This document shows positions 27,159-64,000 of a DNA stretch of 64,000 nt, one piece after another. Every line of letters begins with the position of its first letter. The first letter of the stretch is position 1. The notes under the pieces are model-generated. The model saw only the letters and a program-made list of their open reading frames with translations, had not been told where the DNA came from and ran no database searches. The stretch is from the sequence record NZ_CP027239.1; one strand, 5' to 3'. This DNA comes from a plasmid. Position numbers and translations under genes: made by a program.

Positions 27159-27273
27159 TTGGGGCAGTTGATCGTCGGTGCTGCTGCACCGCGCAAGCCC
27201 CATGATTGACTCGATTCATACCAACGGACTGAGCCTTACACCGAGGAGGACTCACCACCGGAAAGGACACGAC

Positions 27274-27480
27274 ATGAAGGTCAGCAAGGAACAGATCCAG
27301 ATTCTGAACGAGCACATCGCAGAGAACCCGGACCAGGGGCCGCACGAGATCGCCCGCTACATCGCCCGCATCACTGACATGGGTGAAGACGACACTTTCG
27401 CCCTGGCCACCATCGTGAAGCACCTCAAGAACGGCGACCCGCTCCCGGCCGCGTACCTGGCCGAAGACCAGGGCGACTGA
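27274..27480 (+). CDS. small protein (68 aa) between ART and ARH genes
   Basis: RBS ggaaaggac; stop overlaps the ARH start (TGATG). Confidence 0.5.
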   Translation: MKVSKEQIQILNEHIAENPDQGPHEIARYIARITDMGEDDTFALATIVKHLKNGDPLPAAYLAEDQGD

Positions 27481-28583
27481 TGAGCCAGGCAGACAACACG
27501 GCCCGCTACGCCAACGCGCTGATCGGCGGAGCCGCCGGCGACGCCTGGGGCTACCAGGTCGAGTTCACCAAGTACCCGAAGATGCCCGCCTACCCCGTGA
27601 GCCCGCCGGCCGGCGACTGGATCATCTCCGATGACACCCAGATGCTGCTGGCGACCCACAACGCGCTGCACGATGTCGTGGACTTCGATGACATCGACGA
27701 GGTGGCCGAGGTGATCCTCGACCGGTACCTGGACTGGGCGGTAGACCCAGACAACAACCGAGCGCCCGGGACGACGTGCATGAGTGCGCTCTGGAACATC
27801 GAATCGGGCAAGCATTGGAACGCCGGCGGTGCCCGCTACTCGGCGGGCTGCGGCGCGGTCATGCGGCTGGCCCCGGCTGCGTTCGCCCCGCAGCAGTACC
27901 GGCGAGGTCTGGCCGTGCTGCAGGCCGTCGTCACCCACCGCCACCCCAAGGCCGCCCTGTCGGCGCTGCTGCTGTGCGATGCCTTCACCGTCGCCGGCCA
28001 GGCACCGCTCCTGGAGCACGCCCGAGCTGACCTGATGACGCTCGCGACCCGCCTGCCGGATGCGTGGGCAGACGACGACTACCTCCTGCGAGTCCTGGCC
28101 CTGCTGACCGACGACCCGCACGCCTACCTGTCTTCCGCACTTGGCCCCGAGCCCGGCCGTCGCGGGCCGTCGATGGAGCAGGCGTTCACCGCAGCGGCAG
28201 AACGTCTGGCCATCGAAACCCACTCCACCGGCTGGGCTGGTGACCCCTGCGCCGGAATCGGCGAAGGTTGGGACGCAGCAACCGCCACCGCACTGGGGAT
28301 GCTGGCCGCCGACCTGCACCGCAACGGCCGCCTCGGCCCGGTGGAGGCCATTGCCTGGGCGGCGACCAGCAACGGCGACTCCGACTCAATCGCCACCCTC
28401 GCCGGCGCCCTCATCGGAGCCGCCAGCAGCGACCCCGGATTCTGGGGCGACCACCAGCTGGGCCTATGCCTGGAGCCGCGCTACGCAGACGAAATCGACA
28501 ACGCCGCATCGCAGGGCCCCGCAAGCACCCTGGCCGGGGTATCAGCAGCCATGGATCGACCAGTGGGCCTGACAGGCGTCTAG
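27480..28583 (+). CDS. ADP-ribosyl-[protein] glycohydrolase (ARH/DraG family)
   Basis: Family motifs GGAAGDAWGY, SDDTQM, APGTTCMSA and C-terminal SNGDSDSIATLAGALIGA (Mg-binding Asp cluster). Confidence 0.85.
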   Translation: MSQADNTARYANALIGGAAGDAWGYQVEFTKYPKMPAYPVSPPAGDWIISDDTQMLLATHNALHDVVDFDDIDEVAEVILDRYLDWAVDPDNNRAPGTTCMSALWNIESGKHWNAGGARYSAGCGAVMRLAPAAFAPQQYRRGLAVLQAVVTHRHPKAALSALLLCDAFTVAGQAPLLEHARADLMTLATRLPDAWADDDYLLRVLALLTDDPHAYLSSALGPEPGRRGPSMEQAFTAAAERLAIETHSTGWAGDPCAGIGEGWDAATATALGMLAADLHRNGRLGPVEAIAWAATSNGDSDSIATLAGALIGAASSDPGFWGDHQLGLCLEPRYADEIDNAASQGPASTLAGVSAAMDRPVGLTGV

Positions 28584-41479: not shown

Positions 41480-41899
41480 ATGGGACAGACGAAGTCACGG
41501 TTCCGCCAGTTCACCGACCAGCAGTGGGAGCGGATCGAGCCCCTGCTGCCCTCGAATGCAGGGCGGCAGGGGCATCCGTTTCGAGACAACCGCAAGATCG
41601 TCGAGGCGATCATCTACCGCTACCGAGCAGGGATCCCGTGGCGGGATCTGCCCCGCGACGAATACGGGGCGTGGCAGACGGTGTGGAAGCGCCACGCCCG
41701 CTACGCACGGGACGGGACCTGGGATCGTATCTTGCACGTGATCCTGGCCGATGCCGATGCGGCCGGAAAGATCGACTGGAACGTTTCGGTTGATGCGACG
41801 ATCTGCCGTGCTCATCAGCACGGCACGAACACCACCCGCCCTGATCAGGACACAGGGGGCCAGGTCGAATCACAAGAACCGATCCTTCCGGGACTGTGA
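41480..41899 (+). CDS. IS5-family transposase orfA (N-terminal DNA-binding part)
   Basis: QQWERIEPLLP...GRQGHPFRDNRKIVEAIIYRYRAGIPWRDLP matches the N-terminal region of IS5/IS427/IS1031 transposases. Confidence 0.75.
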   Translation: MGQTKSRFRQFTDQQWERIEPLLPSNAGRQGHPFRDNRKIVEAIIYRYRAGIPWRDLPRDEYGAWQTVWKRHARYARDGTWDRILHVILADADAAGKIDWNVSVDATICRAHQHGTNTTRPDQDTGGQVESQEPILPGL

Positions 41900-42336
41900 A
41901 CCCGCAGGTCGCGAATGTGGTCACCGGCGGGCAGCGCAATGATGGTGCGATGCTCGCTGAAGTACTGGCCGACATCCATGTACCGCGCCTTGGCCGTGGC
42001 CGGCCTCGCACCCGCCCGGACGCGGTGATCGCAGACAAGGCGTACTCGTCCGGCACGATCCGCCGCCAGCTCCGCAGTCGCGGTATCGCCGCCGTGATCC
42101 CAGAGAAGAGTGACACCATTGACGCCCGCGCCCGGCGGGGAAGACGCGGCGGCCGGCCGCCGAAACTCGACGTTGACCTCTACAGAGGGCGAAACGTCGT
42201 TGAGCGCTCCTTCGCTCTGGCCAAGCAGTGGCGCGCCCTGGCCACCCGCTACGACAAACTCGCGATCACCTACCGCGCCGCCGTCACCCTCTGCGCCATC
42301 CTGACCTGGCTACGCCATTTAGGAGAGACGCCCTAG
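41896..42336 (+). CDS. IS5-family transposase orfB (DDE catalytic part; expressed by programmed frameshift from orfA)
   Basis: VIADKAYSS...RGIAAVIP...RNVVERSFALAKQWRALATRYDK = DDE_Tnp_1 C-terminal signature. Confidence 0.7.
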   Translation: MNPQVANVVTGGQRNDGAMLAEVLADIHVPRLGRGRPRTRPDAVIADKAYSSGTIRRQLRSRGIAAVIPEKSDTIDARARRGRRGGRPPKLDVDLYRGRNVVERSFALAKQWRALATRYDKLAITYRAAVTLCAILTWLRHLGETP

Positions 42337-51485: not shown

Positions 51486-54308
51486 TTAGTCCGCCGTCAA
51501 CTCCTGATACCGCTGGAACAGCACCTCAAGACGCTGCCGCTCCGTCGTGAGCTTGCGGGAAGCACCGAGCGCGACATCAACCTCGCGGTCCAGTCTGTCG
51601 TGCGCTTTCACGAGCTGCGGGTCCATCGCCAACGGGTTGTAGGCATCGGCCAAACTTCGCTCCGGGTGCAGCTCTCGGGCCGCCAGAACGCCCTTTCCGG
51701 CAGCGATGATCTTCGCTCTCTGTTTATCGCTGAGGGCTGGGACCGGGAAGGTGTTCCACGTCAAAGTGTTCGCGAATCGGACTCGCGATTCCAGGCGGCC
51801 ACCGATGGTTTTCTGCCAGGTGATGAACATCGACGAGGACAGCAGAGCAAACTGCAGGCCGTCGAGGTCTTCGACGGTGAAGGTCAGATCGCTGGCGATA
51901 GTCGCAGCGGGAATTGCCGCAGCGAGATAGTAGGGACGAGTCTCACTGGACACTTTGGGCAGGCACAGATGTGGAACGTCGCGGTGGGATCGTTGGCCGA
52001 ACAGATGAGGGGTTGCGGCCATCGCGCGGGTGGACGCGGCCTTGCTCTTCGCGCGGAAAGCCGCGACCGCTTCGAGCCTGCTCTTAAGGAACGGACTGCG
52101 TCCGATGTCTGCGGGGTCTAAGTCCACGAGCCACAGGCACCATCGGGGGAGGCCGTGAAGTAGCTCGCGCGAGCCGATGAACGGGCGAACGTACTGCGCG
52201 GCTACCGGGTCGGCCATCACCTGGTCGTAATCGTCGACCTCGACGATTAGGTTGCCGTCGTCGCGAGCCATGTTGCCGAACACCGCAGGCACGATCTCTG
52301 GAGAAAGTGGTTGGGAGCGCTTGGCGACGAGCACGTTGGGCGCGTCGACGAGATAGGCGTTGATTCCCACGGTGACAGGTAGGGGCTCCGCGGGACCGCT
52401 GGGGGATGAGTAGCCGAACAGGCGTGGCTTAGTGGCGTCGTCTCGGGTGAAACCGACGATCACGCAGTGCACGGCCGCCTTGCCGGGGGCCTGGGAATCC
52501 CAGGCAAAGGTGCGGTGTGCGAATCCGATGCGCCAGCCGGCGGCGAAGATCGGGCCGAACAGCCGGGGAACTTGGTCGCCTTGTGTGATGGAGTTGGTGG
52601 TGACGTAGGCAAACGCCCCGGGCCGGTCGGCGAGTAAGTTGAGCGATTTGGCGTGCCACGCGGTGACGTAGTCCAGGCGACTGATGTCGTTGGTGCCCCA
52701 TGCAGTTCGTAGCTGGTCGGCCTGCTCTGTCGTGCGGGTGGCGTGTCCGAGGAAGGGCGGATTGCCGAAGATGAAGGTCTGACCGGCCGGCTTGGGCAGG
52801 GCTGCGTTCCAGTCCAACTCGAGCGCGTCGCCGTGGACGATGTGAGCCGTGATTCGGATGGGCAGCCGGTCGGGGGCCTGTCCGATTGCTTCAGCGAGAC
52901 GGCGGTTGGCTTGGTGATCGACGAGGAACATCGCGGTTTCGGCGATCTTCGCTGGCCACCAGTTGATCTCGAAAGCGTAGAACCGGTCGATCGTCAGCTT
53001 CTGCTCGAGCGTGGCGTCTAGCGACATGCCGGTCTCGCCGAGCCGGCGTCGGCGCTCGACGATGAGATCGGTCTCGATGTCGCGCAGCTTGTCGTAGGCG
53101 AGCGAGATGAAGTTCCCGCTGCCAGCCGCGGGATCGACGTAGAGGTTGGCCGCGAGCTCGTCCTGCAGTGCGGCGAGCTGCGCCGGGGTGGTGGACTTGT
53201 TGGCGATCAACCGGTCCGCTCGTGACCGGTAGTCATCGAGAAACAGGGGGCCGATGGTCTTGAGGATGTTCTCTTCGCTCGTATAGTGCTCGCCGGCGGT
53301 GCGGCGGGCCTCTCTGGACTTCACGAGCTGGAACATGGCACCGAAGATGGCCGGCGAGATTCGGGTCCACCGGAATCGGCATGCAGCCAGCAGGGCGTCG
53401 CGCATCGCTGGGGTGAAGAAGCTGGCCGGCAGGGTTTCGGCGAACAGTGCACCGTTTACGTACGGGAACCGTGCCAGCAGGTCCGGCAGGTCTCGCCGCC
53501 CGCGGCCGGGTGGGGTGTTGAGGACCTGGAACAAGGTCACCAGCTGGCCGCCCAAAGTATCCGGCCCCGTGGTCTCCTCCACCCACCGGTAGAACAGATC
53601 GGCTTCCCACAGCCCGGCATCGTCCCCGTAGAGCAAGAACAGGATGCGCGTGAGGAAGATCGACGCCTGCTGAATCTCGGCGTCCTCTTCGTCCGGGTCG
53701 GTGGGCGCTTCGTTGGAGACGTCTTCGTCGGCGTCGTCGCCGACCATTGCTGTGTAGAGATCGGCCATCAATTGGGCCGCGTGAATGGAGGCGTGCTCCT
53801 CTTCGCGGCGGGTGATGGTTTCGTGGCCCGCCAGGAACAGCAGGGCGTCCAGGTGGGCCGCAATGTGTGCGACGTCTATCTCGACGCTGGTCCGCTCATC
53901 TCCCAAGCGGTCGACCCGGAGTCGGGCAAAGTCGGTGACCAGCACGTACTTGGGAAACTCGTGCTGACCGATGCTTCCGCCGGACAGGTAGTCGAGGGCT
54001 TGTCGGTGTGCTTTGTCCAGGTCAGCGCCCAGGCTCTTGGCCTCACCGATGAACACTCCAGACTGGAACACGTCGATGTACCCGCTGCGGCCAGTGCTAG
54101 CCCGCACCGCGTCTCGCTCAAACAGATCCAGGCGGGCCGCGTTGATGCCGAAGCAGCCGAGCAAGTCAGACCAGAAGGAGTGCGCGAACGATTTCTCCGT
54201 GTGCGGGGTGTTGTCCTCCCGCCACGTTCGGACGGTAGTGGCCCAGTGGTTGGCGAAGTCGACCAGTCGACGTTTGATCTCGCCCCGGTCCACACCCGTA
54301 GTTGCCAT
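51486..54308 (-). CDS. type IIL/IIG restriction-modification enzyme, MmeI family (fused PD-ExK nuclease + gamma-class N6-adenine MTase + target-recognition domain)
   Basis: 940 aa; N-terminal D...GEAK (PD-ExK-like GYIDVFQSGVFIGEAKS); MTase motif I VDPAAGSGNF and motif IV NPPF; size and architecture match MmeI (~920 aa). Confidence 0.8.
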   Translation of the reverse strand: MATTGVDRGEIKRRLVDFANHWATTVRTWREDNTPHTEKSFAHSFWSDLLGCFGINAARLDLFERDAVRASTGRSGYIDVFQSGVFIGEAKSLGADLDKAHRQALDYLSGGSIGQHEFPKYVLVTDFARLRVDRLGDERTSVEIDVAHIAAHLDALLFLAGHETITRREEEHASIHAAQLMADLYTAMVGDDADEDVSNEAPTDPDEEDAEIQQASIFLTRILFLLYGDDAGLWEADLFYRWVEETTGPDTLGGQLVTLFQVLNTPPGRGRRDLPDLLARFPYVNGALFAETLPASFFTPAMRDALLAACRFRWTRISPAIFGAMFQLVKSREARRTAGEHYTSEENILKTIGPLFLDDYRSRADRLIANKSTTPAQLAALQDELAANLYVDPAAGSGNFISLAYDKLRDIETDLIVERRRRLGETGMSLDATLEQKLTIDRFYAFEINWWPAKIAETAMFLVDHQANRRLAEAIGQAPDRLPIRITAHIVHGDALELDWNAALPKPAGQTFIFGNPPFLGHATRTTEQADQLRTAWGTNDISRLDYVTAWHAKSLNLLADRPGAFAYVTTNSITQGDQVPRLFGPIFAAGWRIGFAHRTFAWDSQAPGKAAVHCVIVGFTRDDATKPRLFGYSSPSGPAEPLPVTVGINAYLVDAPNVLVAKRSQPLSPEIVPAVFGNMARDDGNLIVEVDDYDQVMADPVAAQYVRPFIGSRELLHGLPRWCLWLVDLDPADIGRSPFLKSRLEAVAAFRAKSKAASTRAMAATPHLFGQRSHRDVPHLCLPKVSSETRPYYLAAAIPAATIASDLTFTVEDLDGLQFALLSSSMFITWQKTIGGRLESRVRFANTLTWNTFPVPALSDKQRAKIIAAGKGVLAARELHPERSLADAYNPLAMDPQLVKAHDRLDREVDVALGASRKLTTERQRLEVLFQRYQELTAD

Positions 54309-54503
54309 CGACGATCTCCTTGCCGGTCACCTGGTTCCCGCCGATCCTGCCAGTGGGTCGCGCTGTCCAAGCAGGCGGGAGGTCTCGTCTCATTGGGCCT
54401 CTGAGAACCAGGCGCCCGCATCGGGGCGGGTAGTGCTGCACCGGCACGGAGGGGCTGGACACTAGGGGCCATCAACCCGCCCCTCCAGTGAATGGAGCCC
54501 CCG

Positions 54504-55121
54504 ATGAGCCTCCCGCATCTCCCCGGTAACCGATACGTCCTCAATCTGCGCACTTTCCCCGAGGGGGATCTGCAGGTGAACTTCACCTGGCACGACGACG
54601 CGTGCCGGTTCCTGATGGACCAGGCCTTCCTGTACGCCGGGCGCGTGACCTCGTTCCACGCATGTCTGGCTGAGCACACCGATGCCGATTGGCGCCGCAT
54701 CCTGCACGAAGTGCACTGGAAGGCCGACGCCGACGAGCACGGATTGCAGGCGTTCGTGGACGACACGATCCGCGCAGACCTCGCCAGGCAACTGCTGAAC
54801 GGGCTCGACCACGGTCTGATCCGGGCCGGTGTGGCCTCGAAGGTGGTGTACGCCGAGTGGCAATGGGTGGCCACCTGCGACGGCTGCCACCTCGACGACC
54901 TGCCCGCGCTCGTCCGCCTGGCCGACGGTGGCAACCTCACTGACTTCTACGACCTGCTGGATTCCAGCCTCTACGACGTCGCTGATCGCTACTTCGTGCA
55001 GAACCTGTTCGGGCTCTCCACCGACCAGCCGTTGGCAGTTCGCCGTGAACGCAACGGGGCCATCACCACCAGCGCGGACCCCGACTTCGCTTGCGAGCCG
55101 ATACTCAAGGCCACCGCATGA
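54504..55121 (+). CDS. hypothetical protein (205 aa)
   Basis: Motif 63 bp upstream; RBS ggagccc. Confidence 0.5.
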   Translation: MSLPHLPGNRYVLNLRTFPEGDLQVNFTWHDDACRFLMDQAFLYAGRVTSFHACLAEHTDADWRRILHEVHWKADADEHGLQAFVDDTIRADLARQLLNGLDHGLIRAGVASKVVYAEWQWVATCDGCHLDDLPALVRLADGGNLTDFYDLLDSSLYDVADRYFVQNLFGLSTDQPLAVRRERNGAITTSADPDFACEPILKATA

Positions 55122-55387
55122 GCCGCCAGCCAGCCACCGTCTCGTCGCTGGTCGCCGACTACGCCCTCTACGGGGTGACCGCCGGGATGGTCCGCGCTCT
55201 CGCAGCGAACATCGCCGTCACCCACGCCGCCCACGTTGACGGTGACCATGACCCGCTCCCGGCTGCCGTCGCGGCGGAGCTGGTCGTCGAACTCAATGCC
55301 CTGGCCTCGGACTTCCAGGCGCAAATTCCTGCGCGGCAGGACGCCTACGCCGCGAACATCCGCCAGTACGGGCACCTGTTCACCTAA
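55118..55387 (+). CDS. hypothetical protein (89 aa)
   Basis: ATGA overlap with previous gene. Confidence 0.45.
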   Translation: MSRQPATVSSLVADYALYGVTAGMVRALAANIAVTHAAHVDGDHDPLPAAVAAELVVELNALASDFQAQIPARQDAYAANIRQYGHLFT

Positions 55388-55424
55388 CCGCCACGAGAAC
55401 CCCGCCAGGACGGAGAACCGCCCC

Positions 55425-55628
55425 GTGTTCGACACCCACATATGGCTGATGGACGCCGAGGATGACGTCCGCGCGGCGATCTCCGAAAAGTTCAAGATCA
55501 TCCCGGACGACGAGTACGACGTACCTGCGATCACCCGCGAGGTGTTCGACGACGTCGACGGCGTCCTGTCGCCGAACGCCCTCGCGGAGCACTTCTGGAT
55601 CGTCGCCCGCAAGCACCGCTACACCTGA
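55425..55628 (+). CDS. hypothetical acidic protein (67 aa)
   Basis: GTG start with RBS aggacggag. Confidence 0.45.
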   Translation: MFDTHIWLMDAEDDVRAAISEKFKIIPDDEYDVPAITREVFDDVDGVLSPNALAEHFWIVARKHRYT

Positions 55629-55819
55629 CAAGGAGCCGTCCCGACCGGGTTGCGGCGCCGGGGAAGTCCGTCGGGTGGCTGTCCGGCCCACGCGGGCGGC
55701 AAGCCGCTGCCAGCGAAGAGTCCCGCCCGCCGCGCGGGCCCGGGGCGCTGCTGCACCGAGCAACCAGGCGGGCACGCTCGCACTCGTCCACCCCGCCTCC
55801 ACGAGCAAGGGAGCAACCG

Positions 55820-56224
55820 ATGAGCCGCACCGTTCGCCGCAGGTTCGCCTACACCGCGCGCGTTCGCACCAAAGTCGGGGGCGCTGGGCACGCGGCCTGG
55901 TCGGCGCGTGTGAGGTTCGAGCGCCGAGAGTGGGGCTCGAGCGTGCGGGAGGTGCAGCGCACCAAGTCGATCGTCGAGTCGTTCGACGAGCTGATCGACC
56001 CCAGCCACCCCGACATGCCCCCCGGCTTCGACCTGGAGACCCCCGAGATCCGCAGCTACATCGAACGGGCCCGCGCGGCCCGCGCCGTGGCCGATGCCGT
56101 CGCCGAGCAGCTGGCGCCCATCCAGGCGCAGTGGAAGGCGCAGACCGCCAGCACCAGCGATTATCCGCTCGACGGCTGGACCCCGGCAGCGTCCCCGCCG
56201 GCCACAACCGACCCCACCGCATGA
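55820..56224 (+). CDS. hypothetical protein (134 aa)
   Basis: Motif 64 bp upstream; RBS aagggagcaacc. Confidence 0.5.
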   Translation: MSRTVRRRFAYTARVRTKVGGAGHAAWSARVRFERREWGSSVREVQRTKSIVESFDELIDPSHPDMPPGFDLETPEIRSYIERARAARAVADAVAEQLAPIQAQWKAQTASTSDYPLDGWTPAASPPATTDPTA

Positions 56225-56333
56225 CCGGAGGTGCCCGGCGATCGTGCCGCCCACTGCGCAGGCCTCCGTGCTGCACCCCGGACCGCCGCGAGAACACTGA
56301 TCACCACACCGCCACCAGACCGAGGAGCACCCG

Positions 56334-56765
56334 ATGAGCGCCACCCGAACCATCACCGCCGCCGAACTCCGCCCGGGCGACACGTTCGTCAAGGACGATC
56401 AGCGGTTGACCGTCACCGACCAGGTCGCCCCGTCTGACACCTGGGCCGGTTTCACCCGCGTCGGCCTCGACTACGGAGTGCTCTACATCCTCTCCGACGC
56501 GCAGGTCACCGTCGTCGCCAGCACCGACGACGCGTGGGCGGACGTGACAGTCGGCCCCAACGGTTCAGTCGCCGACGAGACCAACGCCCACCACTTCACC
56601 ACCGCCGCCGGGACCCCGATCGCCACCAAGCTGCAGCTGGCCGTTCCCGCCGACCTGACCGCCGAGGACGAGATCGCCGAGTGGGTCGGCCACATCAGCC
56701 AGCGCATCATCACCGCCGGCGGGCCCGGCACCACCTTGACCGTGCACGTCGGAGACGGGCAGTGA
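56334..56765 (+). CDS. hypothetical protein (143 aa)
   Basis: Motif 58 bp upstream; RBS gaggagcacc. Confidence 0.5.
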   Translation: MSATRTITAAELRPGDTFVKDDQRLTVTDQVAPSDTWAGFTRVGLDYGVLYILSDAQVTVVASTDDAWADVTVGPNGSVADETNAHHFTTAAGTPIATKLQLAVPADLTAEDEIAEWVGHISQRIITAGGPGTTLTVHVGDGQ

Positions 56766-57151
56766 CCGCCGCAGACCGGCGCCGGGCGCCGTTCGCCGCG
56801 GTGCGGCCCTGCAAGCACTGCCCGTTTCGCAGCGACATCACCCCGTACCTGAGGCCGGAGCGAGCCCGCGAGATCGCCGATTCTCTCGACCGTGGTGAGG
56901 ACTTTCCCTGCCACCAGACGGTCACGTACGGCGAAGAAGACGGCCTCGAGACCGCTGATACGGGCAATGCCGCCCGCTGCGCCGGCGCCTTGATCATCTG
57001 CGAGAAGACCGACCGTCCCACGCAGGCCATGCGGATCGGTGAACGGCTGGGCCTGTACGACAGGAACGCCCTCGATATGGCCGCCCCGGTCTACGACACC
57101 CTCGCCGACTGGGTGACCGCCCACCAGGCCGCCCGCCACGGTCGGCACTGA
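56762..57151 (+). CDS. hypothetical Cys-containing protein (CKHCPF...C..C)
   Basis: GTGA overlap with previous gene; possible metal-binding cluster. Confidence 0.5.
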   Translation: MTAADRRRAPFAAVRPCKHCPFRSDITPYLRPERAREIADSLDRGEDFPCHQTVTYGEEDGLETADTGNAARCAGALIICEKTDRPTQAMRIGERLGLYDRNALDMAAPVYDTLADWVTAHQAARHGRH

Positions 57152-57361
57152 CTCGACCCGCGCTCGCGCCCCCACCAGCACGGGAAGATCCTGGCTGGGT
57201 GCACGGTGGCCTCGGCCCGACGGCGGCCTTGTCTTCCGGTCGGGCTGTCCGGCACGGCATTAGGCAGCCCCCGGGTCACAGCGCCGCACGCTGCTGCAGT
57301 CCCCAACAGGCGCGGGAAGGTGAGGGCATCAACCCACCCCGACCCGCTGAGGGAGCACACC

Positions 57362-57751
57362 ATGGCACTCGAGCCGCTGACCCCGACTGACCGAATCGTC
57401 AACGTCTACCTGAACGTCGCTCGCGACAGCCTGGGGCGACCCGCCGCACTGTTCGACGGGTACAAGGCCGGCGACCCCCTGCGCCACTGCTTCCGGCTCC
57501 CCCTCGTCGGCGCGGAGCTGCGCCTGTCGCCCACTGCGCTCGCGGAGAAGGTGTACCACCTGCTCAACGTCGGTGATGACCCCATGCTCGGTACGCCCGA
57601 CGAGCGGGCGGTGGCTTACCGACTCGCCAACTACCGATCCCTGAGCGTGGGCGACGTTCTCGAGATCGACGGCGAGCATCTGGCCGTGGCTTCCATGGGG
57701 TTCGTCTCCGTCGACGCCCCGGCGCGGGAGGCGATCTCGACGCCGTGGTGA
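57362..57751 (+). CDS. hypothetical protein (129 aa)
   Basis: CTGCTGCAG variant motif 63 bp upstream; RBS gagggagcac. Confidence 0.5.
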   Translation: MALEPLTPTDRIVNVYLNVARDSLGRPAALFDGYKAGDPLRHCFRLPLVGAELRLSPTALAEKVYHLLNVGDDPMLGTPDERAVAYRLANYRSLSVGDVLEIDGEHLAVASMGFVSVDAPAREAISTPW

Positions 57752-58101
57752 CCCAGGTGTGCGGGGCGATCATGGACTGGAAACCGGCCCTGACCCCAGT
57801 CCAGGCACGGCCCGGCAGATAGCAGGGCGCCCGCGAGCCAGGGACGGGCCACCCTGTGGCTGCGCTGTCCACGCTCCACCTCCGAGTCGCCGCCGCACGG
57901 TGGGGGAGGTTCGGGCCAGTTCGACGCGATCCCGTGGTTCGGCCCCGTCCGTTCCAAGGTCCGGCCCGGGTTGACGCCCGCGCGACACGCCGAGGAACCG
58001 CGCGGACCAGCGAAATTGGAAATGCGAAATACTAAATCCCCGGGTCGGGCTCTCCCGCTGCGTAGCGTCACTCTCGCACGCTGCCAGAGGAGGAGTGAGC
58101 G

Positions 58102-58404
58102 ATGGACACCCAGCACACCACCGGTGCTCGAGGAACCACCTCGAAGCGAAGGGTCGGCCGTCCGAGCAAGGGCGTCTACAAGCCGTACAGCATCAAGGCG
58201 CGGATCGACATCGCCAACGAGCTGGAGGCACTGGCCGGCAACGGGATCACTCGTACCGACCTCTTCGAGGCGGCAGCTGCGATGGCCCTCCGTGACAAGG
58301 AGGCGCTACTGGCTGAGGTCGAGGCGCAGCGCGAGATTGCGGCGCGGCACCGGCTGGAGATCGGCCTACCTCCGACGAAGGGGGACCGGAATGTAGCCGC
58401 CTGA
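58102..58404 (+). CDS. small DNA-binding protein (AT-hook GRPSKG + helical/RHH-like)
   Basis: RBS gaggagg; upstream AT-rich region with GCGAAAT x2; positioned immediately before the rep gene. Confidence 0.55.
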   Translation: MDTQHTTGARGTTSKRRVGRPSKGVYKPYSIKARIDIANELEALAGNGITRTDLFEAAAAMALRDKEALLAEVEAQREIAARHRLEIGLPPTKGDRNVAA

Positions 58405-58410
58405 ACGCGC

Positions 58411-58740
58411 CTATTCGACGCCGGTCAGCGCACTGGCCCGACCACCAATCGGGCCGCTCCCAGCTGATCGAACCGAAGTCGAAGCACCGCGGCCACCGCG
58501 TTGTTCACCACACAACGTGCGACCCTGCAGGCGAGACGAAGGAAACGGCGACCACCTAGAACTTCCCACTGCAGGCCACCAACCTGCAGAAAAAGAAGAA
58601 CCCGCCCCTGACGGGGACGGGAACTTCAGAAACCAGAAGCGGAAGATTCTCTCGGTTACCAGCCGATCCCGGTTACCAGCCGGGTTCCTCCGAACGCCAT
58701 CCAGATCGCTCGTTGCCGACCAAAGCAATGAGGTCCTTTT
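58411..58740. promoter_or_regulatory. candidate replication origin / iteron region
   Basis: Locally reduced GC; direct repeat GGTTACCAGCCG x2; CTGCAGG x3; aaaaagaag A-tract; lies at the 5' end of or upstream of the prim-pol gene. Confidence 0.4.
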
Positions 58741-60700
58741 GTCGTACGACGACGACTATACAGCGCTGCCCCCTACCCATCTACCGGACGACACGCCGAG
58801 CAATGCTGGGCTGACCTGGGAAATACTCCGCGATAGCTGGAGCCCTCGGACCCACATCCGGGTCGACCGCGACGGTGACAACGCCGTCTACGTCGACGTG
58901 CCCGCCGGCCGAACCCGCCCGGCGAAGCCGCACGCGCTGTACCTCGCCGACGAACAGCAGCGATTCCGCCTGCTCGGCTTCGACTTCGACGCCCACCGGG
59001 ACGGACTGTTTCCGCAGGTAGATGCCGCAGCCTTGCAGGCAGTCCTCACCGCCGCCCACATCCCGCACCTGGCGTGCGTCTCCGGGCCCGGCGGCGGCGT
59101 CCACGTGTGGGTGCGCCTGTCCGCCCCCACGCCTGCCTCCGCGGTCCGTCGCCTCGCCCGCCAGCTGGACGCCGTCTACCCGTCGTTCGACCCCACCCCG
59201 CTGCTCAACGCCGCCACCGGCTGTCTTCGAGCTCCTGGGTCTCCGCACCGCCGAGGCGGCCACTCCGCCCCACAGGGCAATCCCCGGATCCTGCCCGTGG
59301 CTTTCCCCGATGTCGTGCGAGCCCTGGCTGGTCTGCGCCCCGCTGCGGGCACCTCGGCCGGCAGCCCGCGGGCCGAGCGGCGCCAGCCGATCGACACCAC
59401 CGCCTGGGGCACCCCGCATCTTCGCGGGATCCGGCGGCCGTTGCCGGCGCAGTTCCGCGCTCTCGCCCGCAAACCCGTCGCCCTGGCCGCCGATGCCTCT
59501 GCCATCGGCTGGTCCCTGCTGTTGGCCTGCGCGCACGCCCGTTTCACCCAGGAGGACGTCCACCACGCCGCCTTCGTCGAGCAGTGGCCTGGCCTGGAGT
59601 ACCTGCGCACCGTCCGTCAGGCCGACCATCGCTCTCCCCGGCCCAGGAAGGAGCAGTTTCTCGAGCAGCAGTGGCATCGCGCCGTCGACAGCGCAGCTGC
59701 GATCCCTGCACCACCAGAGGATGCCGGCAGCGCCAAGTGGCAGGCCTCCGCTGAGCGTGTCGCCGCGTTCCAGCAGGAGTGCGACCGCACGCCCAACCGG
59801 TGGCACGGGTGCACCGGCGTCGTCGACAGGCTCCTGCTCGACGCCCTGTGCTGGCACATCGCTCGAGCGGCGACCACAACGGTGCACCTGTCCGAGAGGG
59901 CGTGGGCGCTGACCGCAGGCCTCGACAGATCCACCGTCAACCGTCGCATCAAGACCTTGCTCGCCGAGGGCTGGATCGTGCGCGTCAAGGACGCCGCCGG
60001 ACCGTGGGCGGCGCAGTGGGCGTTAAGAGAAGGGGGCGGGAAATCAGGTAGTGGCCCAAATTCGGTAGAGGTGATCGACTCTCTCGCCGAGAAACTGCGA
60101 TCCGCTCGTCACGACGTCTGGTGCGCCCCCGGCTGGGGCCAGACCGCGTGGGCGGTGTGGCGGGCCATCAGCGATGGCGTCCGCGGGCTCCGCCAGATCC
60201 GCGCCGCGACAGGACTGGGCGTGAGCACCATCGCCAGCAAACTCGCGGCCCTGCGCGGTGCCGGCCTCATCGACCGAACAGGGCGACGCGCCTATAGCGG
60301 CCGCAGTCGTCTGGCCACGGCCGCCGAGCACCTCGGAATCCGTGGCGCCCACGCGGACAAGGAACGCCTATACGCACTGCATAGCGCCACATTCGTGTGG
60401 TGGCTCACCGACCGTCTCCGCGACCAGCTGTCCGGCCCCAGCGACGCCCTGGCCGAGTGGGGCATGTTCCCCGACGACCACGTTGCCGCCAGTACCGACC
60501 CCCGGGACGTTGCGATGGTCTACGGGGCAGTCTCCGCGGGCACACCGCCGCAGGTCACCGCCTGGTCAGCCGCGATGGTTTTGCAGGAACTCCACCGCCA
60601 CCGAGACCCCCGCTACTGGCGCGAGCTCGTCGCCGACGCCCGCACCGCGCTGCCCGCGGCGGAGATGTACGGGCCGGCGGTCCTACATCTGGCTGCCTAG
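58517..60700 (+). CDS. replication protein with bifunctional primase-polymerase (AEP/prim-pol) N-terminal domain
   Basis: AEP motifs LGFDFDAH (DxD), VSGPGGGVHVWVRL (sGxGxH), LRAPGSPHRRGG (R-PGS-H); C-terminal wHTH-like region; true start probably downstream of 58517 (5' part overlaps iteron-like DNA). Confidence 0.7.
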   Translation: MRPCRRDEGNGDHLELPTAGHQPAEKEEPAPDGDGNFRNQKRKILSVTSRSRLPAGFLRTPSRSLVADQSNEVLLSYDDDYTALPPTHLPDDTPSNAGLTWEILRDSWSPRTHIRVDRDGDNAVYVDVPAGRTRPAKPHALYLADEQQRFRLLGFDFDAHRDGLFPQVDAAALQAVLTAAHIPHLACVSGPGGGVHVWVRLSAPTPASAVRRLARQLDAVYPSFDPTPLLNAATGCLRAPGSPHRRGGHSAPQGNPRILPVAFPDVVRALAGLRPAAGTSAGSPRAERRQPIDTTAWGTPHLRGIRRPLPAQFRALARKPVALAADASAIGWSLLLACAHARFTQEDVHHAAFVEQWPGLEYLRTVRQADHRSPRPRKEQFLEQQWHRAVDSAAAIPAPPEDAGSAKWQASAERVAAFQQECDRTPNRWHGCTGVVDRLLLDALCWHIARAATTTVHLSERAWALTAGLDRSTVNRRIKTLLAEGWIVRVKDAAGPWAAQWALREGGGKSGSGPNSVEVIDSLAEKLRSARHDVWCAPGWGQTAWAVWRAISDGVRGLRQIRAATGLGVSTIASKLAALRGAGLIDRTGRRAYSGRSRLATAAEHLGIRGAHADKERLYALHSATFVWWLTDRLRDQLSGPSDALAEWGMFPDDHVAASTDPRDVAMVYGAVSAGTPPQVTAWSAAMVLQELHRHRDPRYWRELVADARTALPAAEMYGPAVLHLAA

Positions 60701-60726
60701 CGGCCTCCTGCCCGCTCTCGCGCACG

Positions 60727-60765
60727 CGTTTGCACGTAGGTACAATGGACGTGCAAGCAAGGAGG
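60727..60765 (+). promoter_or_regulatory. promoter with palindromic operator TTGCACGT-N11-ACGTGCAA containing TACAAT
   Basis: Perfect 8-bp inverted repeat flanking a -10-like hexamer, 10 bp before the RBS of the antitoxin gene. Confidence 0.55.
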
Positions 60766-60770
60766 TTCCG

Positions 60771-61610
60771 ATGTCTGAACCAGCGAAGGCTCCCAGTTCC
60801 GCACGCGTCGTAAGCAGGCCTCGCGGTAGACGCCGTGAGAACCCCGAGGGAGCGGCCATCTCGATCGACGATGCCGCCAAGCGGAACTTGAAGCTGCATC
60901 TCGTCGCCGCCTCGGGTGAGACGATCACGGCTTCGGGAAGCTCAGACCTGCTGACGGTGTCGGCCCGCACCTTCAAGCGAAAGGCCCCCACCACAGCACC
61001 CAAGGCCGGGCCACGCGACCAAGTGGCGCAGGCCGTTCTGGACCTCCTGGCCGACGTCGGGATCCCTGCCGAGGAGGGGCCCCGCCTGATTGATCACGTC
61101 CGAGACCTGCTCCGCTCGACCACTTCGTCGCAGTCCACCCCCGTCAGCCAGGCCGACGTGAACTACCTACGTCAGCACGCAGGTCTGGACGACCCGTCGG
61201 TCATCGACGACTGGAACCCCCAGTCCGAAGACCAGCTACGGGCAGAAGTCGCCGTGGCTAACGCCACGACGTTCATGATGGGCACCCTCAGCCGAGAGGA
61301 AGCCGCACAGCTGCTCAACAGGGACGAATCCGTGGTGTCGAGGCGAGTCAGCAACGGGCAACTCCTCGCGGTCTACAGAGATGGGCGCCCGCGCTTCCCG
61401 CGGTGGCAATTCCACAACGGGCAGGCCCTGCCCGGACTGCCCGCGGTGATCGACGCGCTGTCGACGCTGGGCATGGACACCGTGGCCGTAAGTAGCTTCA
61501 TGGTCCGCCCCAACGACGAGCTAGACGGACTACCGCCCGTCGACTACCTCGTCGGCGGAGGCGACCCAGAGGCTGTAGTGGCTCTTCTCGAGAGCATGGC
61601 GCGCAGTTGA
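60771..61610 (+). CDS. Xre/ParS/MbcA-type antitoxin (HTH + C-terminal RES-toxin-binding domain)
   Basis: RBS aaggagg; HTH LSREEAAQLLNRDESVVSRRVSNGQLLAV; C-terminal block FMVRPNDELDGLPPVDYLVGGGDPEAVVALLES (DUF2384-like). Confidence 0.7.
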   Translation: MSEPAKAPSSARVVSRPRGRRRENPEGAAISIDDAAKRNLKLHLVAASGETITASGSSDLLTVSARTFKRKAPTTAPKAGPRDQVAQAVLDLLADVGIPAEEGPRLIDHVRDLLRSTTSSQSTPVSQADVNYLRQHAGLDDPSVIDDWNPQSEDQLRAEVAVANATTFMMGTLSREEAAQLLNRDESVVSRRVSNGQLLAVYRDGRPRFPRWQFHNGQALPGLPAVIDALSTLGMDTVAVSSFMVRPNDELDGLPPVDYLVGGGDPEAVVALLESMARS

Positions 61611-62251
61611 GCGGTCGGCCCAAGGCTCCGAGGACCCCACGAAGGCCCTTGGAGTGGGATGACACTGACATCGTCACGGTCAATCCCGGTACTGCGCTGT
61701 GGCGGATTCACAGGACTCGCGGTCCGTTCCCGAGCGCCTGGAGCGACTACCGCTTCTACGGGCCACTGCCGGGGATGCGGTGGGACCCCCACCCTGCGCC
61801 GACCGCAGCCCACACCGACTGCGCCGTCCTCTACACCGCCTACGACCTGCCCACCTGCATCGCGGAGGTCTCTCATCCCGCCGGCCTAGTCGACACCGTG
61901 ACGGCTAGCCCGTTCGCGACGTCCTGGTCCCCGACCAGGCCCCTGCGCCTACTCGATCTCACACGGCAGTGGCCGCTTCGGATGGACGCCACGCACGCCC
62001 TGATGTTCGCTCCCCGATCGACGTGCAGGAACTGGGCGCACGAGATCTGGAAGACCGCGCGCAGCGAGGGCAAGCAACTGGACGGACTCGAGGTGCAGTC
62101 GACGGTGACGGGCTCCAACATGGCCGTGCTGTTCTCTGACAGTCAAAACGCCCTTCCCGCCGCCCCGGCATTCACCTCCCCCCTCTCCGGGCCGATGGTC
62201 TTCACCATCGCGGCGAACCTCGCCGCCAGAGTGCAGTGGCCCATCATCTGA
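61607..62251 (+). CDS. RES-domain toxin (ParT/MbcT-like NAD+-consuming toxin)
   Basis: Start overlaps antitoxin stop; RES-family blocks LWRIHRTRGPF, GMRWDP (Arg), AVLYTAYDLPTCIAEVSHP (Glu), downstream conserved Ser. Confidence 0.7.
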   Translation: MSGRPKAPRTPRRPLEWDDTDIVTVNPGTALWRIHRTRGPFPSAWSDYRFYGPLPGMRWDPHPAPTAAHTDCAVLYTAYDLPTCIAEVSHPAGLVDTVTASPFATSWSPTRPLRLLDLTRQWPLRMDATHALMFAPRSTCRNWAHEIWKTARSEGKQLDGLEVQSTVTGSNMAVLFSDSQNALPAAPAFTSPLSGPMVFTIAANLAARVQWPII

Positions 62252-62291
62252 GTCGCCGTCGTCGTCCTCGCGGGCCGGATGACCTCTCAGG

Positions 62292-62564
62292 ATGAGCCGC
62301 CGACGCTACAGACGAGACACCCCCGTCGCGCCGCCCCTTTTTCCGTGGGCCCGACTAACGTCGCGGGCCATGAGCGCCGTGGAAGACCGCCCCAACTACT
62401 GCCCGAACGGACATCCCTTCGGGCCGGACAAAGTCCTGGTCGGGTGGCGCCCTCCGCCGGTGGGCCAGGTCGGACGCGGTTCCCGCACCTACGAGTGCCT
62501 GCAGTGCGGGGCCATCATGGACTGGAAACCCACCCTGACGCCCGCCAGCGGCCCCCACAGGTAG
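62292..62564 (+). CDS. hypothetical zinc-ribbon protein (C..H...C..C)
   Basis: YCPNGH...ECLQCG pattern; start uncertain (62292 or ~62370). Confidence 0.35.
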   Translation: MSRRRYRRDTPVAPPLFPWARLTSRAMSAVEDRPNYCPNGHPFGPDKVLVGWRPPPVGQVGRGSRTYECLQCGAIMDWKPTLTPASGPHR

Positions 62565-62750
62565 CGGTCGGGGGCGACTGCGACGCTGTCCGCACCACAT
62601 CCCGCCGAGCTCTCACCCGCCACCGGCCCGCATGCTGCTGCACCTTCCGGCCCTGCGCCGATAGTTGAGCCGTCCCACCGCCTCGGCCGGGAGCGGCTCC
62701 ACGAAGCCGCCCTGAGGACGAGCGGAACGCCCGACCGAAGGGAGCCCTCG

Positions 62751-63221
62751 ATGCTTCTGCGCGACATGCTCGACAAGTACGCCAACCTGCAGCGCCAACG
62801 CCAGCAGGAATCTGACGCCATCGAATCCGGCGAGCACGGCAGTTACGAGCTGTACGACGAGCTCGAAGACAACATCGCCGAGCTGTTCATCGACAACGCG
62901 CCCGCGCTGACTGCGCTGCTCGCCCGGCTCGACGCGCTGACCGCCGCGGTCACCGCCTACGACACGGCCACCGAGGCTGGAGACAACGACGACAGCCACG
63001 ACGAGGCGATCCGGGTGGCCGCCCGCGAGGTGATGGAGCAGGCGCGCGGCGCGGGCGGTGAGCACAGCGGGCCTGACTACGCCGATCTGCGCCAGGCGCA
63101 CACGGCAGCGTTGCGGGCCGTCGACGGCGACAGCAACGACGACGAGATCGCCGCCTGGCGTGAGACCGCGGAACTGGCGACGGCGTACCTGCCCGGCTAC
63201 CAGGACCCGACCATCGACTGA
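62751..63221 (+). CDS. hypothetical acidic protein (156 aa)
   Basis: Motif ~108 bp upstream; RBS gaagggagcc; hairpin follows stop. Confidence 0.5.
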   Translation: MLLRDMLDKYANLQRQRQQESDAIESGEHGSYELYDELEDNIAELFIDNAPALTALLARLDALTAAVTAYDTATEAGDNDDSHDEAIRVAAREVMEQARGAGGEHSGPDYADLRQAHTAALRAVDGDSNDDEIAAWRETAELATAYLPGYQDPTID

Positions 63222-63232
63222 CCACCACCACC

Positions 63233-63262
63233 TGACCCCGGTCCGAGCAACGGGCGGGGTCA
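63233..63262 (+). terminator. hairpin tgaccccgg-N12-ccggggtca (approx.)
   Basis: 8-9-bp stem after stop 63221. Confidence 0.35.
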
Positions 63263-63365
63263 GCTGGTCTCCGCTGAACGGCAGCGCCGCTGTCCGGCCC
63301 GGATCGCGCGCCTTCATCCGGCCGACGCCCGGCACCCACCCACGACGAACGGGTTCGACGGCGCG

Positions 63366-63374
63366 GTGCTGCAC
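63366..63374 (+). promoter_or_regulatory. STGCTGCAC promoter-like motif copy
   Basis: gtgctgcactcgcggaccgc shares a 17-nt extension with the copy at 14428. Confidence 0.6.
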
Positions 63375-63482
63375 TCGCGGACCGCGGCGGAACCATCGAC
63401 AGCAACCGGGCCCGGAGCGACCTCCCTTGGCGCATCCGGCGTCACCGCAGCCAGGGCCCGGCGCAGGATGGAGGCTTAGACA

Positions 63483-64000
63483 TGGGTCAGTACCACGTCA
63501 TCGCGAACCTCGATAAGCGCCTGGGGTACAGCCCCAGATCGACCGGCGACTTCCTCAAGCTCACCGAGTTCGGGCACGCAGGCGGAGCCATGTGCGCCCT
63601 GGTCGCCCTGCTCGATGGGGATTGGCACGGCGAGCGGGTGGCCATCGTCGGCGACTACGCAGAAACCGGCGACCTGACCGCCGAGGCGACACTGCGCGCC
63701 GGTCTCGATCCGGCGCATCTGTACGCGGCCATCAATCACCCCGCGTGGCTGCGTGAAACGCATGGCATCAGCAGCGACTGGCGCAACGTCGGCTGGCTGG
63801 CACGCAAAGTCGTCGCTGGCAGTGGGCTTGGCCGCTTCGACCGCCAGGAGTGGACGGTGCGCGACTACGACGGCACCGTCAGAACTAGCCACGGCTACCG
63901 GTGGGAGCTGACCCCGCAGCCTGACAGCAGGCAGCGCGTGGTGGTCAACCTCGACCGGGCCGAGAAGATCGACCCGGCCGCGTTCGGTGACGACCGCAGC
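63483..64000 (+). CDS. hypothetical protein (5' part; runs off the window)
   Basis: ATG with RBS gatggagg; motif ~109 bp upstream; open to window end. Confidence 0.5.

Follow-up and report, generated by a model that had tools for sequence, protein, structure and literature searches.

The stretch analysed here comprises 64,000 nucleotides of a plasmid (sequence record NZ_CP027239.1; hereafter the window), and its positions 57982-60700 hold a gene, rep, for a protein that joins an archaeo-eukaryotic primase (AEP) domain to two winged helix-turn-helix (wHTH) domains and has no helicase, a small partner gene upstream, a structured spacer between the two and a terminator on the minus strand of that spacer (Table 1). 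We take this segment to be a self-contained plasmid replication-and-copy-control cassette, including the control at several levels proposed below, and put the probability of this reading at about 0.6. As delimited by nucleotide conservation, the cassette runs from a promoter with heptad repeats through the 100-aa gene of a probable ribbon-helix-helix (RHH) protein and a spacer of 334 nt to rep, and in close relatives a gene for a 100-aa basic protein and a spacer of about 300-335 nt always lie 5′ of rep. Across seven loci, nucleotide conservation sets in sharply at 57982 and is lost at the stop codon of rep, with nothing conserved 3′ of the gene, and BLASTN homology between the window and a locus with an 83%-identical Rep (L003) covers exactly 57981-60680. 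Two metagenome contigs are 98-99% identical to the window and collinear with it over 54418-64000, and a metagenome scan with an invariant 26-mer returned only two near-identical contigs.

Table 1. Features of the cassette, in window coordinates.
Feature	Position	Strand	Remarks
Promoter/operator region	57982..58101	+	putative roles
Box CGACACGCCGAG	57983-57994	+	
Heptads GCGAAAT TGGAAAT GCGAAAT ACTAAAT	58010-58037	+	four contiguous 7-bp units
-10-like TAGCGT	58063-58068	+	
Shine-Dalgarno (SD) GAGGAG	58090-58095	+	before the small gene
Small basic protein gene	58102..58404	+	100 aa, ends VAA
Structured rep 5′ leader	58485..58738	+	sole conserved part of the spacer, nine-locus alignment
Long-range leader helices	58510-58514/58710-58714 and 58544-58547/58694-58697	+	
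Hairpin A, CTGCAGG-CCACCAA-CCTGCAG	58569-58589	+	
Intrinsic terminator CCCGTCCCC-GTCA-GGGGCGGG then TTCTTCTTTTTCT	58588..58621	-	terminator scan; invariant in nine loci
A-rich linker, A-tract AAAAAGAAGAA	58590-58600	+	
Predicted countertranscript (ctRNA), ~155 nt	58590..58748	-	predicted from terminator and -10-like element
Hairpin B	58601-58621		
Repeat C1	58650-58666		
Repeat C2	58667-58684		
rep SD GAGG	58730-58733	+	
rep	58739..60700	+	653 aa, TTG start, LAA end
-10-like TATAGT	58755..58760	-	within rep codons 6-8 (GAC TAT ACA)
Second CGACACGCCGAG copy	58789-58800	+	rep codons 17-21, disordered N-terminus
Rep AEP (primase-polymerase) domain	~58814-59386	+	catalytic candidates D82, D84, H122, D151 (D156, D158, H196, D225 in 727-aa numbering)
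Rep wHTH1	~59834-60025	+	
Synonymous-constraint island	60026..60070	+	linker after wHTH1; candidate embedded cis element
Rep wHTH2	~60137-60331	+	followed by C-terminal helical domain

The Rep protein

A first, sequence-only reading of this DNA had described the open reading frame (ORF) 58517..60700, 727 aa from a GTG, as a primase-polymerase replication protein with a wHTH-like C-terminal region, and motifs, Pfam matches, an AlphaFold2 (AF2) model and Foldseek comparison concur with this. The three AEP motifs stand in the order LGFDFDAH, VSGPGGGVHVWVRL, LRAPGSPHRRGG, giving the DxD, sxH and third acidic residue in sequence, with D156, D158, S189..H196 and D225 (727-aa numbering) invariant. 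Across 27 homologues, down to 28% identity, the invariant residues are D156, D158, S189, G190, G194, H196, W198, D225, N231, G235, R238 and H244, the AEP pattern being followed by an R238-PG-H244 motif. The AEP-TOTE family PF22548 matches residues 140-217 with 27.5 bits (E = 2.8e-6), which reaches the gathering threshold of 27 marginally and spans only profile positions 77-150 of 230, and a LigD_Prim-Pol match is weak. At E<=1 Pfam gave no match to Prim-Pol (PF09250), the family against which the sequence-only reading had suggested checking the protein, nor to the ColE2/pAL5000 Replicase (PF03090) or PriCT, and an NCBIfam scan matched no Rep or Cop model.

The AF2 model has a mean predicted local distance difference test score (pLDDT) of 78.6, with values above 85 for most of residues 100-720 and of about 85-95 in the AEP domain. 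Among its top 24 Foldseek matches in the PDB, 22 are AEP/Prim-Pol structures (LigD-Pol, CAPP, S-2L PrimPol, Prim-PolC and HP0184; probability 1.0, TM(target) up to 0.57, E ~1e-3) and the other two are the multi-wHTH protein RPC62. Pfam winged-helix matches fall into two groups, at residues 444-493 and 549-603, and in a profile search of PDB sequences the wHTH regions match NmtR, Crp, ArsR and SlyA. Judged by sequence and structural model, the large protein is an AEP-fold protein with two winged-helix domains, and primase activity is predicted for it.

The annotated 5′ end had been suspected to be too long, with an in-frame TTG near 58737 as the true start; the codon holds and its position is corrected to 58739. 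By sequence comparison this TTG is the start of rep, giving a protein of 653 aa and leaving the first 222 nt of the annotated frame non-coding, because five features agree: homologues sharing 61-98% identity are nearly all 652-656 aa long, which corresponds to 727 minus 74; the column of this codon holds TTG or ATG in nine related loci (ATG in two relatives); a conserved SD, GAGG, precedes it in the same alignment; the GC content of third codon positions is 0.59 for 58517-58738 versus 0.83 afterwards; and residues 1-96 of the 727-aa form are disordered in the AF2 model. The only in-frame start codons before 58830 are GTG 58517 and TTG 58739.

Distribution and role in plasmid replication

By tblastn, homologues of Rep were found on 254 plasmids in PLSDB, all of them actinobacterial (Rhodococcus 72, Clavibacter 27, Arthrobacter 27, Streptomyces 23, Curtobacterium 21, Dietzia 9, and others) and all less than 60% identical to the window Rep, the best being those of Dietzia at 45-47%. 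A profile search of 1.84 billion cluster representatives gave 578 sequences at E<=1e-30, nearly all of 600-730 aa, which sets the size of the family at no fewer than 578 clusters at 50% identity. Species-representative genomes contributed 80 loci, mostly on contigs of 20-100 kb, and the closest Rep among them is that of Lolliginicoccus levis (Hoyosellaceae; 63-65%). Family members are carried by Clavibacter pCM2, by pRErm46 of R. equi and by many catabolic plasmids of Rhodococcus, and MOB-suite assigned no replicon type to pCM2 or to the Dietzia plasmid described next. The 'replication protein' of pCM1 and its 733-aa neighbour were also compared and are unrelated to the window Rep. The module is of the ordinary plasmid rep/cop kind, but its Rep family is both widespread and uncharacterised.

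The features by which a plasmid initiator would be recognised, namely plasmid location, linkage to partition genes and standing as the sole Rep candidate on a small plasmid, are all found in the family. On a 26.6-kb Dietzia plasmid the AEP protein is the only plausible Rep and follows a parA-like gene; the pCM2 homologue is flanked by a 72-aa gene and parA; and in many loci parA lies within a few kb of the rep homologue. Six close metagenomic loci (L004-L007, L089, L092) have a divergent parA and an 81-83-aa gene immediately 5′ of the small gene, the 81-aa partner in L004 giving sub-threshold RHH matches, whereas unrelated ORFans occupy this place in the window. The sequence-only reading had assigned the window to an autonomously replicating or an integrative and conjugative element, and its gene content is plasmid-like (an MmeI-type restriction-modification enzyme, an ADP-ribosyltransferase/glycohydrolase pair, DUF2786, DUF3846, a resolvase, an IS5-family transposase, a peptide ABC transporter and many ORFans) and includes no housekeeping genes. 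Self-BLAST of the window found no overlap of its ends, so that it is not a closed circle, and the 2 kb past its end, read from the near-identical contig L088, showed no parA-like ORF by inspection, no profile search having been made there.

It could also be that the AEP protein is an effector of a conflict or defence system of the TOTE type, or a primase for conjugative transfer, and that the plasmid is replicated by another, unseen Rep. Plasmid-borne primases for transfer exist, part of the window's replicon is unseen, and the best Pfam model is the 'TOTE conflict system AEP domain', a name that NCBI gives to one homologue ('TOTE conflict system'; other members are labelled 'hypothetical' or 'HTH domain'). 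TOTE systems are defined by a protein with tetratricopeptide repeats (TPR) and an oligonucleotide-binding (OB, cold shock) domain, a homologue of the TATA-binding protein (TBP), and an effector; the partners TPR, OB and TBP are absent near the window gene and its relatives, where the neighbours, in the window and ten related loci, are an RHH-like gene, parA, a toxin-antitoxin pair and ORFans, and PADLOC was negative for TOTE, with weak wHTH and PrimPol matches only. The gene is constantly linked to parA and an RHH gene and not to genes for transfer, it is the lone Rep candidate of the 26.6-kb plasmid, and a tight control at several levels, as proposed here, is typical of initiators; this alternative seems very improbable to us.

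The rep leader and a predicted antisense terminator

The spacer had been read as an iteron-like origin on the strength of repeats, an A-tract and low GC. Some of these features stand: GGTTACCAGCCG does occur twice, as TC[T/C]CGGTTACCAGCCG at 58650 and 58667, with 17-nt spacing and no other exact copy of the 13-mer in the 64 kb, and both the A-tract and the lower GC are real (56-58% over 58500-58800 against ~70% around). Others do not: CTGCAGG, counted as three copies, is present only twice (58525 and 58569), the third site being CCTGCAGA (58583). CTGCAG itself is found three times within 65 nt (58525, 58570 and 58584), CCTGCAG is 2.7-fold over-represented window-wide, and Tandem Repeats Finder detected no array in the spacer.

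By sequence comparison, the CTGCAGG pair forms a covarying hairpin (hairpin A) in plus-strand RNA; its pairs vary as A-U, G-U and G-C among loci, combinations for which pairing is possible on the plus strand only. The peak nucleotide conservation of the whole cassette, 0.96, falls at 58571-58600. The RNAalifold consensus of the leader has 57 pairs, including long-range helices with compensatory changes, and 9 of the 57 pairs are changed on both sides, versus 3.5±1.4 in shuffles (0 of 500). Folding of the single sequence over 58500-58745 (z = -4.2 for the plus and z = -3.2 for the minus strand) does not discriminate between the strands.

Read on the minus strand, the A-tract and the GC hairpin (hairpin B) have the sequence of a canonical intrinsic terminator, and the variant stem shared by the window and L092 contains a pair that reads C·A on the plus strand but U·G on the minus strand. 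We surveyed 80 loci with Reps 29-65% identical for a hairpin with a T-tail within 450 nt 5′ of rep, and found such hairpins on the minus strand in 37 and on the plus strand in 7; inside rep the same loci gave 3 and 0, respectively. In a strand-symmetric search that yielded 57 distinct hairpins, G·U pairs numbered 40 on the minus strand versus 5 on the plus strand, where composition predicts a minus-strand share of 0.59 (P = 1.5e-5, an optimistic value given that the loci are phylogenetically related). The tails after the hairpin hold 3.9 T in 9 nt on the minus strand versus 1.9 in 10 on the plus strand, and in the Dietzia clade the equivalent hairpin has undergone compensatory changes from C-G to A-T to T-A and has minus-strand U·G pairs.

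Since minus-strand terminators prevail at 37 versus 7 of the 80 loci and G·U pairs at 40:5, the comparison suggests countertranscript control of rep copy number. An intrinsic terminator lies opposite the rep strand and inside the leader, as would be expected under countertranscript control, and the predicted RNA of ~155 nt would cover in antisense the start codon and SD of rep as well as C2, C1 and hairpin B. The sequence GTATAGTCG (minus strand, 58752-58760), which includes the -10-like TATAGT, is invariant in the nine loci; TATAGT requires rare codons in rep (TAT makes up 7/100 Tyr codons and ACA 16/327 Thr codons), and synonymous-codon identity over the first 15 codons (58739-58783) is 0.90 versus a gene mean of 0.53. 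Because of hairpin A covariation, the minus-strand terminator, the family-wide terminators and the invariant -10-like element, we attribute to the spacer an RNA function rather than iterons: the alignments point to a transcribed, structured rep leader carrying an antisense-RNA terminator.

An account without any antisense RNA can be given, in which the GC hairpin is a plus-strand terminator or attenuator of the small gene that works independently of a U-tract, or only part of the leader fold, which would leave the RHH protein and the structure of the leader as the sole controls of rep. In actinobacteria, terminators without a U-tail are common, RNAalifold places hairpin B, with flanking GAAG/CUUC pairs, in the plus-strand structure, and the evidence for an antisense promoter is one hexamer. 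Minus-strand T-tails, the 40:5 ratio of G·U pairs across many clades and the invariance of a TATAGT that costs rare codons speak against this account, and we judge it rather improbable.

The leader of the Dietzia/Demequina clade (L008-L019; e.g. L008 5740-5960), whose Rep is 45% identical, is nearly invariant over ~200 nt and contains a 13-bp hairpin with compensatory changes and a second hairpin with TTACCG in its loop. From a strong SD-GTG, an in-frame extension of 21 codons leads there to the GTG that is aligned with the window TTG.

The putative promoter region and the small upstream protein

The 100-aa ORF with its GRPSKG motif, and the GCGAAAT-type repeats 5′ of it, were both found as the sequence-only reading had reported them, the latter as GCGAAAT/GGAAAT/GCGAAAT/CTAAAT. 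A 7-nt periodicity of AAT is retained in all loci of the promoter alignment, and the left-end box, the AAT-ending heptads and the -10-like TAGCGT are all conserved. Omega-type RHH proteins bind arrays of 7-bp heptads, and the array in the cassette resembles omega-type operators. The exact 12-mer CGACACGCCGAG occurs twice in the 64 kb, at 57983 and 58789, so placed that its copies enclose the stretch from the regulator gene through the leader to the start of rep, with the left copy at the exact edge of cassette homology. The 8-mer GACACGCC lies 720-756 nt 5′ of the rep start in 7/7 close loci with sequence that far, and also 51 nt 3′ of it in 8/9 close loci. In the Dietzia clade the reverse complement, GGCGTGTC, is found ~60 nt into the long rep ORF, overlapping an alternative GTG start.

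The small protein had been called an AT-hook/RHH protein. That it is a conserved partner is borne out, as every close locus has it upstream of rep, with an identity of 62-84%; its likeness to RHH proteins is plausible, from secondary structure and a weak profile alignment; and on comparison with AT-hooks the N-terminal KRRVGRPSKG contains the GRP core, with V in place of the first R of R-G-R-P. This arm appears to be followed by a beta-alpha-alpha core and then a long C-terminal helix, the AF2 model (pLDDT 69) showing strands within residues 20-27, a first helix at 31-46 and a second at 51-87. The arm (KRxVGRPxKG) and the C-terminal VAA are conserved across loci, as are V18, G19, R20, K23 and G24. 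Neither Pfam, nor a PDB profile search, nor Foldseek gave a match to the small protein, and among 5.8 billion proteins it has 10 close homologues, confined to this Rep clade. Its positional counterpart in the Dietzia clade gave sub-threshold matches to RHH_5, NikA-like, FitA and CopG (E = 7e-4 to 0.1), and hhalign aligned the two at E = 0.009 with low probability. Because of the model with strands followed by helices and of the RHH matches of the Dietzia counterpart, we treat the small protein as a probable RHH regulator of the Cop/omega-like kind.

Both proteins of the cassette end in Ala-Ala: the small protein ends in DVAA in 7/7 loci (58396-58404 in the window) and Rep in LAA (60692-60700). 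An Ala-Ala end is found in almost all of the 27 Rep homologues, though their C-termini are otherwise unalignable. In sequence these ends look like a shared degron of the ssrA kind, as recognised by ClpXP.

Where the origin may be

Since conservation collapses at both ends of the cassette, the origin probably lies somewhere inside it. Sequence conservation offers three candidates, the invariant core 58557-58630, the heptad/box region 57982-58040 and the island 60026-60070. The core is more invariant than a terminator needs.

As first proposed, the spacer 58411-58740 would be the origin; on such a model the GGTTACCAGCCG repeats would be iterons bound by Rep and the A-tract the unwinding element; the GC hairpin may in addition be a primase recognition (ssi-like) site. 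The spacer does hold the highest conservation of the cassette, its invariance among plasmids with Reps 61-83% identical would suit a site that a conserved enzyme reads, both the A-rich tract and the dip in GC exist, and a relaxed DnaA-box-like TTGTTCACC at 58499-58507 is retained in most loci. RepB′ of RSF1010 reads a hairpin with a single-stranded tail, and the model is compatible with transcription of the region. An iteron origin would be expected to have at least three direct repeats of ~17-22 bp in helical phase, conserved along with Rep, and an adjoining AT-rich DNA-unwinding element, whereas the spacer has two repeat copies 17 nt apart, out of helical phase, of which the second is nearly invariant and the first is unrecognisable in L004 and L007. 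The cassette contains no conserved repeated 9-mer, and its one notable conserved repeated 8-mer, GACACGCC, is outside the spacer. The GC-skew check that had been suggested was run window-wide and at 100-nt resolution; it gave no inflection at 58.5 kb, the skew following gene orientation. The A-tract is accounted for as the U-tail of the terminator, and double-stranded binding sites would not require the wobble pairs seen on plus-strand RNA in hairpin A and on minus-strand RNA in hairpin B. We consider the iteron model unlikely, and the placing of the origin at 58.4-58.75 kb, which is unsupported as it stands, is probably wrong or at best incomplete, the region looking like a transcribed, structured leader with an antisense terminator.

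Origins may also be embedded in coding sequence, as are the lambda ori inside gene O and the 'phage-like' origins that lie within rep1 on linear plasmids of Streptomyces. In rep, the interdomain linker at ~60026-60070 is the second strongest island of synonymous identity (0.89 versus a mean of 0.53, sd 0.11, in nine loci), and its run of rare codons (TTA AGA GAA GGG GGC GGG AAA TCA GGT AGT GGC CCA AAT) is kept nucleotide for nucleotide in the codon alignment, with a comparable run in the 45%-identical Dietzia clade. The island is locally AT-richer and purine-skewed (GC 0.61, GC skew +0.31) and holds two AAATYMGGTAGWGG-like repeats (AAAT..GGTAG.GG), 17 nt apart, as well as GGGGGCGGGAAA, a repeat of the 3′ arm of leader hairpin B. 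On the other side, the island is short (~45 nt), its Gly-rich protein motif GGGxxGSG is conserved in itself, and a cluster of rare codons in a linker can be a translational pause. We regard an origin at this place as a slim prospect.

A model for replication and its control

In the reading that we prefer, the plasmid replication-and-copy-control cassette, Rep would contact plasmid DNA through its wHTH domains, and its AEP domain would synthesise the primer that starts plasmid replication, host helicase and polymerases completing the process as they do for ColE2 Rep. The supply of Rep would be limited at several levels. By acting at the 7-bp heptad repeats, the small RHH-like protein would repress the promoter of the operon. 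A ~155-nt antisense RNA, starting at the TATAGT within the first rep codons and ending at the 58621-58588 terminator, would pair with the leader, the SD and the weak TTG start and block translation. The Ala-Ala ends of both cassette proteins suggest fast proteolysis. As a wider and more tentative proposal, which we would put somewhat short of even odds, the cassette may represent a family of actinobacterial plasmid replicons, experimentally unrecognised, with the helicase-less AEP-wHTH-wHTH protein as sole plasmid-encoded initiator, control by an omega-like, heptad-binding RHH protein, a conserved countertranscript and Ala-Ala degrons, and an origin within transcribed sequence (leader core or linker codons).

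Several observations weigh against this view. In the literature on Dietzia, pCM2, pRErm46 and surveys of AEPs and mobile genetic elements we found no experimentally mapped replicon of this Rep family; the pRErm46 paper names no Rep protein, and the homologue carried by pRErm46 has the annotation 'hypothetical'. The PF22548 match is barely at threshold and the model is that of a 'conflict system' AEP, the RHH assignment comes from secondary structure and a weak profile alignment, and among ~57 window ORFs scanned there was no parA, relaxase or integrase. With regard to the antisense RNA, a sigma-70 consensus scan gave no promoter on either strand, the candidate promoter is a single hexamer with a weak -35, the single-sequence fold of the predicted ctRNA on the minus strand is unremarkable (z = -0.7), and no Rfam family matched 57800-58900 at E<=10. 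Antisense control usually diverges, thereby creating incompatibility groups, and a spacer core that is invariant across plasmids with Reps 61-83% identical is unusual for it; this invariance would fit a site recognised by a protein or primase, that is, an origin, at least as well.

Comparison with known systems

By sequence, the window Rep belongs neither to the family of ColE2 Rep nor to those of the pMV158, R1 and inc18 initiators. The functionally closest known system, by analogy, is Rep of ColE2-P9, likewise a plasmid primase of the AEP superfamily without a helicase, whose translation is under the control of antisense RNA I directed against its 5′ leader. With a DNA-binding part at its C-terminus ColE2 Rep binds its own origin, and it synthesises the primer. 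The window Rep differs in having no Replicase/PriCT membership, in its tandem wHTH domains, in the RHH-like gene upstream and in its actinobacterial host, and whereas the ColE2 origin is just 3′ of rep, conservation in the window ends at the rep stop codon. Plasmids of the pAL5000 family in Mycobacterium and Rhodococcus are actinobacterial theta-type plasmids with a ColE2-like, primase-type RepA and a DNA-binding partner; in Pfam this family has no sequence similarity to the window Rep, and pAL5000 has a separate RepB 3′ of RepA, in contrast to the window, where the wHTH domains are fused to the AEP domain and the small protein is upstream.

The order of small repressor, countertranscript leader and rep is also that of pMV158 (CopG/RNA II), R1 (CopB/CopA) and inc18 plasmids (CopR or omega/RNA III), circuits with dual control by protein and antisense RNA. 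Their initiators are unrelated (rolling-circle, IncFII RepA and inc18 RepR, respectively), and from gene anatomy we infer a functional analogy. RepB′ of RSF1010 has the same AEP fold (Foldseek 3h25, rank 31) and recognises a hairpin next to a single-stranded tract (ssiA/ssiB), a site that hairpin B and the A-rich linker could parallel; it needs a separate iteron-binding RepC and the RepA helicase, has no wHTH fusion, and is a far weaker structural match than LigD or CAPP. The Prim-pols of integrative and conjugative elements from actinomycetes (AICEs) and ORF904 of pRN1 (PF09250) are also AEP-superfamily proteins on actinobacterial or archaeal mobile elements, but the window Rep does not match PF09250, and ORF904 carries an SF3 helicase. 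Prim-pol Rep proteins had been cited as established initiators of many actinobacterial plasmids and integrative elements, which overstates the case: according to a review of AICEs, whether their Prim-pol proteins act in replication is not known. The TOTE AEP (PF22548) gives the best-scoring Pfam model, but the context in the window is one of plasmid maintenance, with no TOTE partners.

Other features of the window

Directly 3′ of rep lies a type II toxin-antitoxin pair (60771-62251), in which a 279-aa protein with weak Xre/MbcA/ParS-C and HTH matches overlaps a RES-domain toxin (Pfam RES, E = 4.5e-13) by 4 nt. The palindrome TTGCACGT-N11-ACGTGCAA at 60730-60756, 5′ of the pair, is its likely operator, and a RES gene is also present on the Dietzia plasmid with a Rep homologue. 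At 25050-28583 the genes for an ADP-ribosyltransferase (703 aa) and an ADP-ribosylglycohydrolase form a pair, separated by a small gene; the same trio, with DUF2786/DUF7168, adjoins rep in the 83%-identical L003 (4866-8408) and is 30 kb away from it in the window. The minus strand of 51486-54308 encodes a restriction-modification enzyme of the MmeI type (type IIL), complete in that it has all five MmeI Pfam domains, and the gene has 73% DNA identity to that of a 'DNA methyltransferase' on the Micrococcus sp. V7 plasmid pLMV7, where there is a Rep homologue as well.

A 103-bp direct repeat (97% identical; 1155-1257 and 2825-2927) flanks a minus-strand ORF of 428 aa (1423-2709) without a Pfam match and may be the duplicated junction of an insertion. 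A tRNA-Met (CAT) gene at 4806-4881 stands among ORFans and overlaps a predicted plus-strand ORF, no integrase being found nearby. The IS5-family transposase at 41480-42336 occupies two overlapping frames, DUF4096 in the first and DDE_Tnp_1 in the second, which suggests programmed frameshifting or a pseudogene.

Implications

If the reading is true, a replicon type that current tools miss would gain a name and a working model, and replicon typing and the prediction of incompatibility would become possible for Rhodococcus, Dietzia, Clavibacter, Arthrobacter and Streptomyces plasmids. Gene starts would be corrected, the 74-codon 5′ extension of rep being leader and not protein, and matches to the AEP-TOTE Pfam model would have to be taken with caution as a sign of defence genes. 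A defined antisense-RNA circuit would be at hand in high-GC Gram-positive plasmids, and the compact 2.7-kb cassette could seed shuttle vectors.

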